Below, piece by piece: positions 44,730-46,645 of a DNA stretch of 64,000 bases (within the stretch, counting starts at the first letter, position 1; every line of letters begins with the position of its first letter). Below the pieces are notes generated by a model, which was not told where the DNA came from, did not search any database, and saw nothing but the letters and a program-made list of their open reading frames with translations. The DNA comes from an uncultured archaeon. Its GTDB lineage: Archaea > Iainarchaeota > Iainarchaeia > Iainarchaeales > GCA-2688035. Both the position numbers and the translations under genes were made by a program. The DNA lies in the NCBI GenBank assembly GCA_964354805.1, contig CAYHBD010000042.1, positions 18,038 to 82,037 on the forward strand, written 5' to 3'.

Positions 44730-45782
44730 CTACTTTTTTGGGGGTTGGTAATATTGCCTTAGCTGTTCTTCGTATCGTTTTTCAACAACTTCAAATCTTC
44801 TTTTTGATCTCTGAAAGTGAGACTCGCCGGAAAGCAGGTTTTCCAAAAGCCCTGCAAATTGCCTTCTTTTGACAGAATTGAGTTTTGGAAACTGACCAAT
44901 GAAAGCTTCGATGACTGACTTCCTTAGCTCCCCCTGAATTATGTTGAATGAAAAGCCGCCGTACTTTCCATGATACTCTCTCTTTTCCCCCAACCCAATA
45001 TCTACACAAAAATGCTGCAAAGCAAGCAGGTTCTTCTCAAAAGCCCTGCACAGCTGCTTTGGGTTTGAGTAATCTATTTTTCTGTTCCACAAGCTCTTTG
45101 AAACCTTGAAGTCAATCAGCTTAAGCTTGTGGTTGTCAACAACAAAGTTTTTGGCGCCGGCGTGTTCTGCTTCAATTGAAGCATAGATAATGCCCTCTGC
45201 ACTCAGCTTTCCAAGTATTCTTGCAGCCTGCAATGCAATGTTCGTTCTTGCATGCGGATTCTTTTCAATATAGGCTTGGACTGGAAACCCAGCACCCCAA
45301 ACAAGAACCCTGTAGTTCCCACTTCTTTTGATTTTTCCTTCAAGCCCTGCAATATTGCCTGAAACTATTTTCCTGCCCAGAACATCAACACTGTCAATGT
45401 ACCTGTTTTTTGGGCCTGACCTGTGCTCCTTCACTTTTTCAAAGACAACAGCAGGCTGGTCGGAACCGTCAATGAAAATGTTTTCAACAGGTATTCCTGC
45501 TTTTCTTGCGCGCAGCATGCAAGAAAGCTGCTCGCCGTAAAGGTGCCTTGAGTAAAGGTTTCTTTCCACATTAGGAAACCTGCCTTGCCCATAAACATGG
45601 AATGCCCTGGTAGCAAGATAATAGGCATAAGCACCGCCCCTTGAAAGGCCTGCCATGGCATGCCCTCCAATCGGATGGCCACCCCCCCTATCAAATAACA
45701 TTCGCCCCCAGTCAACCGAAACACGTCCACCTTTTACGCTAATTTCTTTGGCTGTTGGCCTTGCCCTTTTCCTCATCGCCAT
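44730..45782 (-). CDS. hypothetical protein with a weak protein-kinase-like catalytic-loop resemblance
   Basis: 350 aa with a basic N-terminus (MAMRKRARP). EAEHAGAKNFVVDNHKLKLIDFKVS resembles H.D...N......(I)DF but lacks the Asp. Confidence 0.45.
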   Translation of the reverse strand: MAMRKRARPTAKEISVKGGRVSVDWGRMLFDRGGGHPIGGHAMAGLSRGGAYAYYLATRAFHVYGQGRFPNVERNLYSRHLYGEQLSCMLRARKAGIPVENIFIDGSDQPAVVFEKVKEHRSGPKNRYIDSVDVLGRKIVSGNIAGLEGKIKRSGNYRVLVWGAGFPVQAYIEKNPHARTNIALQAARILGKLSAEGIIYASIEAEHAGAKNFVVDNHKLKLIDFKVSKSLWNRKIDYSNPKQLCRAFEKNLLALQHFCVDIGLGEKREYHGKYGGFSFNIIQGELRKSVIEAFIGQFPKLNSVKRRQFAGLLENLLSGESHFQRSKRRFEVVEKRYEEQLRQYYQPPKK

Positions 45783-45866
45783 ACCATTAATTTACTCCTT
45801 CAAACTTGTTAATACCTTTTTCCATTAAACAGCGGAATTGCCTAAAAAGAGAGAATAGCAGCTCAC
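45783..45866 (-). promoter_or_regulatory. conserved ~80-nt upstream module (copy 1)
   Basis: Minus-strand reading: GCTGCTATTCTCTCTTTTTAGGCAATTCCGCTG..GGAAAAAGGTATTAACA..AAATTAATGGT-ATG. It is collinear with 46564..46645. Confidence 0.6.
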
Positions 45867-45873
45867 AGCACTT

Positions 45874-46563
45874 TTAGCTAAACAAGTTGCCGAAATGCTT
45901 TTTTGCAAATGCCGTAATTTCTTTGTCCAATTTGCCTGACTCGATTTCTTTCAGTGCGGTATCCACTGGTTTGCCGTTGCAGATCTCTCTGATTAGGAAA
46001 AGGCCGCTTGCGGGCTTTTTCCACTGCCTTTCCTTGTCTGCTGCAAAAACACCTAAGACCCCTCCAATAGTAGCAATGTCAGTACCTGCATGCCCAAAAC
46101 CGCTTGCTTTATCATGCTCATACCTGCCGTTTTTGAGGTATTTTGGACCTTTTATAATTTGCTCTGCATCCCTAAGCCACAGCAGGTATCTGTCCTTTGG
46201 CATTGAAAACCTTCTCGACATTCTAAAATAAGAAAAATATCCATTGAATGCATTTGCCGTAATCGAATCGTTCTTTCCCAAATCGAAAAAGTGCGAAAGT
46301 TCATGCAAGATATTTAGTTTTTTCCTTAATTCTTCTTCTGTTCCAAACACTTCCGTTCTTAAAAGGAAGTCTGTCTTGGTTCTTGCCATCGCCCCTTCAA
46401 CACGCAATTTTTCTAATTCAGCTGGGCTGCCAACCCTTACCCTTCTAAGAAATTTCTTGACTTTCCTTCTTTTTCCAGCAAGGGATTTGTTCGGAAAAAA
46501 CAAGTCAACACCAGCAATTGCTGCCCTGATCCTTGCAACAGGACTCCTTTGCCTTTTTGCCAT
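45874..46563 (-). CDS. hypothetical protein with an HExxH motif (putative Zn-metallopeptidase)
   Basis: 229 aa with a basic N-terminus (MAKRQRSPVARIR) and the motif LNILHELSHFFD. Confidence 0.45.
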   Translation of the reverse strand: MAKRQRSPVARIRAAIAGVDLFFPNKSLAGKRRKVKKFLRRVRVGSPAELEKLRVEGAMARTKTDFLLRTEVFGTEEELRKKLNILHELSHFFDLGKNDSITANAFNGYFSYFRMSRRFSMPKDRYLLWLRDAEQIIKGPKYLKNGRYEHDKASGFGHAGTDIATIGGVLGVFAADKERQWKKPASGLFLIREICNGKPVDTALKEIESGKLDKEITAFAKKHFGNLFS

Positions 46564-46645
46564 GAATTAATTTGTTTGCCGAAGTGATTAATATTGTTTT
46601 CCAAAGAGCAGCGGAATTGCCTGAAGGGAGAATAGCAGCGGAAGC
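46564..46645 (-). promoter_or_regulatory. conserved ~80-nt upstream module (copy 2)
   Basis: Minus-strand reading: GCTGCTATTCTCCCTTCAGGCAATTCCGCTG..GGAAAACAATATTAATCA..AAATTAATTC-ATG. Confidence 0.6.

Follow-up and report, generated by a model that had tools for sequence, protein, structure and literature searches.

A duplicated, putatively leaderless promoter upstream of two neighboring genes in an uncultured iainarchaeon

We analyzed a 64,000-nt stretch of DNA (hereafter, the window; C42:18038-82037) from an uncultured member of the DPANN lineage Iainarchaeota, the assembly of which (G000) comprises 1.38 Mb in 49 contigs with 44% G+C. Two adjacent minus-strand genes in the window, here termed H and K, were each preceded by a copy of the same short block, which we read from its sequence as a duplicated archaeal leaderless promoter and not as an RNA element or a mobile repeat. 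The explanation that we favor, at a probability of about 0.6, is that the duplicated promoter causes H and K to be expressed together, possibly as part of a DNA-repair regulon. Throughout, G009 denotes a relative genome and L001-L067 denote contigs or loci of relatives. The genes and their upstream modules, including putative transcription factor B recognition elements (BREs), are as follows:

44730-45782, minus strand: gene K, 350 aa, starting MAMRKR
45809-45862, minus strand: promoter module of K, with TATTAA (45809-45814), BRE-like TGGAAAAAGG (45815-24) and the TTCCGCTG box 2' (45828-45843)
within 45809-45862, minus strand: distal part of the K module, comprising a spacer and the first 6 nt of box 1 (AGCAGC on the plus strand)
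45863-45873, minus strand: short H-K spacer, directly 3' of the H stop codon, where the K module starts
45874-46563, minus strand: gene H, 229 aa, starting MAKRQR
46588-46639, minus strand: promoter module of H, with TATTAA (46588-93), BRE-like TGGAAAACAA (46594-46603), box 2 (46607-46622) and a spacer

The duplicated promoter module

The block upstream of K was collinear with that upstream of H, the two measuring 54 and 52 nt, respectively. A repeat search resolved the pair into two segments, one joining 45809-45852 to 46588-46631 (44 nt, 77%, spacing 779) and the other joining 45847-45862 to 46624-46639 (16 nt, 94%, spacing 777). Local alignment of the two upstream regions spanned 54 columns with 43 identities, in blocks of 12, 14, 7 and 6 nt, and a single 2-nt indel, giving a score of 52, while 1000 dinucleotide shuffles scored 15.8 ± 2.3 with a maximum of 26. 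Moreover, the H/K pair ranked first among 1234 real upstream regions of G000, for which the runner-up score was 37. The collinear similarity described in a first-pass annotation of this DNA was therefore real, although its length was overstated, in that the supported duplication covers ~54 nt, from GCTGCTATTCTC to TATTAA, and not ~80 nt. From the TATA box to position +50 the similarity score was 22, within the distribution seen for real genes, and so the AAATTAAT..ATGGC stretch and the MA.R.R protein starts common to H and K are suggestive only. The possibility that H and K are themselves homologous proteins was rejected, with no homology found by blastp.

Further copies in the genome, raised in the first-pass annotation, did not materialize: blastn-short searches of the 1.38-Mb assembly returned no third copy of the whole module, and exact and mismatch pattern searches of the window recovered the module only in its two known positions. 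The direct repeat AGCAGCGG..AGCAGCGG, which had been ascribed to both genes, was present upstream of H only, the K copy having one box and 6 nt of the other. The paralogous copies were closer to each other than to any ortholog. Specifically, box 2 matched at 14/14 positions between H and K and at 12/14 between H and L001, and the GCTGCTATTCTC 12-mer matched at 12/12 positions between H and K and was not conserved in orthologs. On this comparison, the module copy of K is either younger than the split from the orthologous genomes or has been homogenized by gene conversion.

Archaeal leaderless promoters have a TATA box ~25-32 nt before the start codon and a purine-rich BRE, and both features were present upstream of H and of K. 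The TATTAA starts at -30 (H) and -32 (K) from the ATG, instead of the ~35 nt first estimated for this TATA-like element, and is preceded in each case by a BRE-like, purine-rich GGAAAA. Across G000, TATA-like hexamers peaked at -32 to -29 from start codons (214 versus a background of ~50), such that the position found for K is the modal leaderless one, and a Shine-Dalgarno (SD)-like word preceded only 143 of 1235 genes. Because of this sharp peak and the scarcity of SD-like words, we take leaderless transcription from a TATA box ~30 nt upstream to be the norm in G000. Additionally, GGAAAA-N3-TATTAAy was found again ~32 nt ahead of the H start codon in L001, L013, L020 and L021, and ahead of the H remnant in G009, and the BRE/TATA together with box 2 were conserved upstream of the H orthologs in L001, L020 and L021. 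RNA folding of the module gave z-scores of 0.18, 1.91, 0.16 and -0.51, no better than shuffles and without a common fold, and Rfam returned no match to it. The reading of the module as a promoter follows from the TATA/BRE geometry together with these negative RNA results. A C/D-box or other small RNA, or a hairpin motif, was also considered and rejected, with variable N positions that lacked covariation and folds that equaled shuffles.

Our proposed sequence of events starts from a leaderless promoter ancestral to H, consisting of box 2 (TTCCGCTG), the BRE GGAAAA and a TATTAA ~30 nt before the ATG. In the G000 lineage, a ~54-nt copy of this promoter would have been placed before K, and the copy may reach the first codons. 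K sits between H and a pair of tRNA-Pro genes, where several relatives have nothing. The outcome would be two separate leaderless units, and since core promoter and upstream box are common to both, H and K should be co-expressed. A T5 run (CTCTTTTT) in the K module could, in addition, act as a terminator of H transcripts. The first-pass annotation had proposed a co-regulated pair; the duplicated control region makes co-expression likely and co-regulation plausible, while a conserved pair was not found, as other H loci were without K. The two products may also be functional partners.

Promoter reuse, including putative mobile promoters, is known in prokaryotes (Mob Genet Elements 2012, PMC3575422), and the present finding is ordinary in kind. 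The likeness lies in a promoter that is detached from its gene and situated before an unrelated gene of the same genome, rewiring transcription. The module differs in being an archaeal leaderless BRE/TATA with an upstream box that was copied 780 nt to the next gene, in having only two copies and in the lack of an identified transposable element. It nevertheless appears to be an informative instance, in which a leaderless archaeal promoter was copied onto an orphan pseudokinase-like gene beside an uncharacterized HExxH family, and would constitute a clean archaeal case of a lineage-specific gene gaining expression through a copy of the whole leaderless promoter of its neighbor.

Genes H and K

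H belongs to a rare family of 11 members within Iainarchaeota, the ten relatives, identified by word-index and profile searches, having 40-63% identity to it. The string ILHELSHFF, noted in the first-pass annotation, contains an HExxH motif (H87, E88, H91) that is indeed conserved across the family, being invariant in alignment A2 and present in all ten sequences of alignment A3 that cover the site. H also has a basic N-terminus and a highly conserved C-terminal block, FAAxKExxWKKPASGLFLIRExCNG. Neither Pfam, NCBIfam, PADLOC nor PHROGs contained a family matching H, and none of its ten relatives has a Pfam domain; the lone hit of the family-library searches of H and K, to Rpb6, was spurious. 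Sequence searches of PDB returned no match for either protein. An AlphaFold2 (AF2) model of H built from the 11-sequence alignment had a predicted local distance difference test (pLDDT) score of 85 and placed the HExxH in a helix (82-92) after three short strands forming a small sheet, with N104, E178, E193 and H223 as candidate third metal ligands. Foldseek comparison of this model to PDB and BFVD found no significant neighbor (nothing with E<0.29 and TM>0.27), and its top match, DdrC at E 1.7, was considered noise.

The HExxH helix following a small beta-sheet, and the basic N-terminus, are reminiscent of bare-HExxH zincins (SprT/Wss1-like, aspzincin M35 and minimal gluzincins). Single members of the H family had sub-threshold matches to Aspzincin_M35 (E 0.027) and, in one member, SprT-like (E 0.12), and an hhalign comparison of A3 to seven SprT-like proteins of the same order aligned 12 columns, that is, the HExxH helix only, at a probability of 3%. 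Beyond that helix, homology of H to SprT/Wss1 was not found using hhalign or Pfam, and SprT-like genes were absent from the sampled genomes of the host family. We classify H as a putative zinc metallopeptidase, representing a new family that is rare and often in decay, with protease activity predicted from its motif. The family is patchy, occurring in 3 of 61 relatives, and damage was apparent at three of ~12 H loci: L021 has an in-frame TAG, H of L022 is truncated by an IS200/IS605 Y1 transposase, and a remnant of only 34 aa is left in G009. The genes beside H differed from locus to locus and included those for RNase P and the exosome, an RFC-like ATPase gene, a his operon and toxin-antitoxin genes. 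The single in-frame TAG of L021 (606-608) is at a conserved Trp codon (TGG) of the H ortholog, and represents a recent nonsense mutation or else a variant of the strain or of the assembly.

K had no homolog in the word index, no Pfam or NCBIfam match even at E<=10, and none in PADLOC or PHROGs. A phmmer search against 1.84 billion protein representatives returned only P0009 (100 aa, E 5e-4), which matched K residues 234-324. This protein is what remains of a gene interrupted by an IS200/IS605 element, with the end hairpin of the element immediately adjacent to the remnant, and it comes from the same locus in L012, before the tRNA-Pro pair.

A degenerate kinase-like catalytic loop had been proposed for K from the string HAGAKNFVVDN..LIDF, which is present as described, and the proposal held tentatively in profile comparison but gained nothing from curated family models. 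A six-frame search of G000 with the RIO1 model found three other kinases and did not detect K. We then compared K to a profile of 16 Bud32-like or RIO-like small kinases from G000 and relatives. In hhalign, K aligned to these 16 Bud32-like kinases over residues 42-301 with a score of 30.3 (E 1.3e-3, probability 19%); none of 200 shuffles scored as high (13.9 ± 2.6, maximum 24.7), and the reversed sequence scored 15.3. Against 11 RIO kinases alone the E value was 0.15. K was collinear with the small kinases over ~180 columns, including a G-loop-like RGGAYAYY, an alphaC helix EQLSCMLRARKAGIPV and the catalytic/metal-binding region ..AKNFVVDNHKLKLIDF, and retained the catalytic-loop Asn (KN) and the Asp of IDF at the DFG position. 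Unlike them, it lacked the beta3 Lys (a gap at LK) and the HxD catalytic Asp, the HGD of kinases aligning to YAS of K (or to HAG in the register of the first-pass annotation), and it carried an extra ~40 residues between the hinge and the catalytic loop, ~110 at the C-terminus and ~40 at the N-terminus. The kinase-like part comprises residues of about 42-232, followed by the C-terminal domain (234-324) common to P0009. Based on this alignment, K is probably a pseudokinase, in which a degenerate fold of the Bud32/RIO kinase type is joined to a further domain at the C-terminus. Its single-sequence AF2 model (pLDDT 43) was unusable for residues 1-234. Derivation of its C-terminal PPKK* from an ancestral FPKK* end of H was dismissed, the stretch being too short and of too low complexity.

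Separately, a RIO1-model-positive small kinase of ~196 aa that is neither Bud32 nor the main RIO kinase was present in the window at about 19818-20126 on the plus strand (C42:37855-38163), and most relatives had paralogs of it.

A putative operator at the locus and its genome-wide gene set

When G000 was searched with the repeated TTCCGCTG word, the distal repeat of H was found to belong to a family, GAG[CT][AG]NNNTTCCGCTG, of which G000 has 22 exact copies, almost all of them between genes. Read on the opposite strand, the arrangement is CAGCGGAA-N3-YRCTC; TTysAAA; N3-4; TTTAAA; ~22 nt; ATG. The operator, CAsCGGAA-N3-YRCTC, forms an imperfect palindrome (sAGCGG-N4-CCGCTs) located ~11 nt upstream of the TATA box, and the ATG was 39-45 nt from the edge of the motif at at least 11 loci. 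With the H locus excluded from training, an nhmmer model identified 24 sites in G000 at E<1e-3, among them the held-out operator at that locus (46631-46675, plus strand, E 1.7e-5). Pattern counts in G000 were 23 for the operator and 0 for its reversed control. In relatives, the pattern was present in 18 of 19 genomes of the host family and 2 of 12 of other families, again with no matches to the reversed control.

The operator preceded genes for RadA (with an intein), MCM, PriS, PriL, NurA, a Cas4-like nuclease, an RNase H-fold exonuclease (C22), a spore-photoproduct-lyase-like (SPL) enzyme and a radical-SAM enzyme with a helix-hairpin-helix, as well as a Bro-N protein, an AlbA_2-winged helix-turn-helix protein and at least six LAGLIDADG proteins. 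A second exonuclease (C2:17839) was assigned to the DEDD type by eye only. Examples of the 24 sites are C18:15436, C28:23148, C28:90005, C28:92035 and C16:40809. Operator-linked genes of G009 were orthologous to those of G000, with identities of 76% (Cas4-like), 80% (SPL), 78% (MCM), 76% (NurA) and 53% (a 536-aa protein). The last of these (G000 C16:47399, 536 aa; G009 L067, 509 aa) is conserved, with only a sub-threshold match to Gins51_C (E 0.002), and is a candidate replication factor. The free-standing LAGLIDADG genes, which are selfish homing-endonuclease genes, appear to use the promoter type of host replication and repair genes.

At the H/K locus, the operator and the features linked to it were:

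46609-46624, plus strand: box 2, the distal CAGCGGAA half-site, lying 27 nt before box 1 when read along the plus strand
46636-46652, plus strand: box 1, the full operator CAGCGGAAGCCTGCTCT, matched by the held-out nhmmer model
46663-46675, plus strand: TATA box (TTTTTAAA) of the promoter linked to the operator, oriented toward the plus strand
46707-46778, plus strand: 23-codon open reading frame (ORF) MSVFRLCWFVECYKRPKSLRSLI, preceded at 8 nt by an SD-like GGTGAT; the canonical operator target here

A second box was likewise present 26-47 nt away in five other regulon promoters of G000. Box 2, conserved in orthologs, is separated by a few nt from the BRE and by 15 nt from the TATTAA of H; the K copy keeps box 2' and six bases of box 1. 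The H promoter would accordingly be one half of a divergent control region, in which box 2 is followed 27 nt further by the full operator facing the 23-codon ORF. A factor occupying boxes 1 and 2 would also sit against the H promoter and, via box 2', against that of K. Most likely, the operator is bound by a dimeric transcription factor ~11 nt upstream of the TATA box, and control of H and K by this factor is plausible. In L004, where the neighborhood is unrelated, a full operator and TATA box point at the H ortholog, which independently supports linking H to the operator. We found no description of the operator in the literature, and the assignment of an operator role to the upstream direct repeat of H is new here.

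The length, position and SD (GAGGTGAT/GGTGAT) of the 23-codon ORF were conserved in five genomes, represented by the window, L001, L020, L021 and G009 (C1 at about 156060). By analogy to TisB and DinQ, the ORF could encode a small damage-induced peptide; alternatively, it could encode a leader peptide. Its stop codon is in the loop of a terminator-like hairpin in L001, L020 and L021.

Damage-response regulons with palindromic operators include the bacterial SOS response (LexA box) and the radiation/desiccation response (RDR) regulon of Deinococcus (RDRM motif), in the latter of which the DdrO repressor is cleaved by the HExxH metalloprotease IrrE. The system described herein resembles these in having an imperfect palindrome of ~16-17 bp at a fixed distance from the core promoters of recombinase, nuclease and replication genes, and in the presence of a small hydrophobic peptide gene (cf. 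TisB and DinQ in SOS) and an HExxH protein at one operator site. It differs in being from a DPANN archaeon and in that the operator is upstream of the BRE/TATA, a placement usual for archaeal activators or for repressors blocking TBP/TFB. H itself had no sequence or fold similarity to IrrE/ImmA.

Several observations weigh against the favored explanation and its regulon component. Identities within the module were clustered only weakly beyond a random pattern (p about 0.025-0.09). The full operator faces the 23-codon ORF and not H; the H promoter scored only 5.8 bits against the regulon model, from its generic proximal part, and that of K had no match. K keeps a half-site only, and TTCCGCTG-like octamers are common by chance, numbering 430 in G000. 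For K, the HH-suite probability of its kinase similarity was only 19%, and Pfam kinase models were without a match. In G009, a glycosyltransferase gene fills the slot of H beside the boxes, so that genes next to the operator may mark a site prone to insertion rather than belong to the regulon. Finally, K may either have been inserted here or been lost elsewhere.

A more ambitious version of the regulon scenario holds that H, K and the 23-codon ORF are inducible members of a hitherto undescribed DNA-damage or replication-stress regulon of Iainarchaeota, governed by a dimeric factor at CAsCGGAA-N3-YRCTC immediately upstream of the BRE/TATA. H would then be a damage-linked metalloprotease, acting either in IrrE-like cleavage of a regulator or in SprT/Wss1-like removal of DNA-protein crosslinks in a lineage without SprT, and the pseudokinase K would have been recruited as its partner by promoter copying. 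Taken as a whole we regard this as unlikely.

The operator and the duplicated promoter would tie two orphan families to a control region that carries a replication/repair operator found family-wide, including at selfish LAGLIDADG genes. DPANN archaea are hard to culture and their gene regulation is almost unknown; the operator offers a binding-site bait for finding its regulator. A defined operator also yields a predicted regulon that can be sought in metatranscriptomes, with H, K and the 23-aa peptide as candidate archaeal damage-response players.

History of the locus and alternative explanations

As the first-pass annotation recorded, H and K are two minus-strand ORFs located between a tRNA-Pro pair and a tRNA-Ile(GAU) gene. 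The minus-strand order is the control region, H, K, tRNA-Pro(UGG), tRNA-Pro(GGG), a proB-like gene and then proS. The flanking tRNA genes are:

44300-44448, minus strand: tRNA-Pro(GGG) with a long intron, read from the sequence and orthologs
44552-44678, minus strand: tRNA-Pro(UGG) with a long intron, read from the sequence and orthologs; downstream boundary of the H/K pair
46899-46987, plus strand: tRNA-Ile(GAU), unusual, upstream of H

In L001, L020, L021 and L022, H was followed by tRNA-Pro(UGG) and then, where the contig continues, by tRNA-Pro(GGG), with no K. The sequence after the K stop codon in the window was orthologous to that after the H stop codon in L001, and corresponds to the tRNA promoter. 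L012 had a K-like C-terminal stump before the same tRNA-Pro pair, with a 57-codon ORF between; this contig has a downstream His_Phos_1 gene in common with L021, and their tRNA is 90% identical. K was absent from all other H loci examined, so that H and K co-occurred only in G000. Two candidate K relatives, a 364-aa gene upstream of H in L013 and a partial ORF after H in L001, were rejected. Since the arrangement of H and tRNA-Pro is conserved in four related contigs, H is resident at the site and only K is variable, K-type genes having a history in the same slot from which they are usually absent.

The locus has been disrupted in several relatives. In two other metagenomes, IS200/IS605 Y1 transposase elements have cut genes at this same locus: the K-like gene (L011 1678-2187; L012 61-80), where the junction carries the end hairpin CCCCGCACTTTAGTGCGGGG, and H (L022 2-235). 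In G009 (C1:154324-156000; L010, L061), a 462-aa glycosyltransferase-like gene is situated between box 2 and the H core promoter, and of H only a 34-codon stub is left, with the promoter and the first 30 conserved residues retained. In L020 (about 560-690), an insert of ~117 nt separates box 2 from the H core promoter and is flanked by duplicated box 2 sequences (GGCTTCCGGTGAAA / GCCTTTCCGGTGAAA); this insert may be a mobile hairpin repeat.

These rearrangements bear on whether the two module copies are by-products of recombination that were not selected, left either by Campbell-type integration of a circular cassette of H and its promoter into a homologous promoter before K, or by a tandem duplication of promoter and H in which the second gene body was replaced by K. 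Such an origin would accord with repeats that lie exactly on either side of H at a spacing of 779 nt, the duplicated box-2 region around the L020 insert, the gene inserted between box 2 and the core promoter in G009, the K-like gene standing alone before the tRNA-Pro pair in L012, and the first codons (MA.R.R..P.A) and AAATTAAT common to H and K. It fits poorly with H being present with a single module at the same site in four other genomes, which leaves no recent cassette there, with the non-significant similarity past the TATA box, and with the failure to identify a recombinase or att-like element. We consider this account improbable; moreover, it concerns origin only and is compatible with the copies working as promoters.

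Promoter duplication also has to be weighed against the interpretation given in the first-pass annotation, that of a defense, toxin or protease island, in which H and K would form a functional two-gene system acquired horizontally next to tRNA genes. The patchiness of H (3/61 relatives), its frequent damage (L021, L022, G009), the IS200/IS605 transposases at the locus in two contigs, the proximity of some H homologs to toxin-antitoxin genes (PemK/MazE in L003, ParE in L016) and the lineage-specific nature of K are all in keeping with such an island. Nevertheless, neither gene had a PADLOC match (0 families at E<=10) or a PHROG match, and with Pfam and NCBIfam likewise silent there was no positive evidence for a defense or toxin system. 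Against acquisition at a tRNA locus were the synteny, as H followed by tRNA-Pro is a conserved arrangement and not a fresh insertion, and the lack of both an integrase or recombinase (only H and K are between the tRNAs) and a tRNA-derived direct repeat. With co-occurrence limited to G000 and the promoter native to the locus, inside the control region of a housekeeping-type regulon, we find an acquired island quite unlikely.

A transcribed cis-regulatory RNA, be it a common 5' leader or a protein-binding RNA on both mRNAs, is very improbable: a good TATA-like TTTAAAAA ~110 nt upstream of H could give a leader of ~85 nt with both boxes, but the corresponding TATA serves the opposite strand at other regulon sites, K has no such upstream TATA, the folds were as in shuffles and not common to both genes, no Rfam family matched, and both genes have a TATA box at the leaderless position.

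With respect to the surrounding sequence, both tRNA-Pro genes (44300-44678, minus strand) were missed by ARAGORN in bacterial mode as a result of their long introns. Their orthologs in L001 are intron-free, and L012 and L021 have an intron in the GGG isoacceptor only. A 90-aa gene without a Pfam family (MSFPVKKFSVG...) was present in the window at 47184-47456 on the plus strand and in L001 at 5444-5719 on the minus strand, where it comes directly after the 23-codon ORF. In the window, tRNA-Ile(GAU) and a partial copy of it are situated between the 23-codon ORF and the 90-aa gene, which looks like an insertion into that unit.

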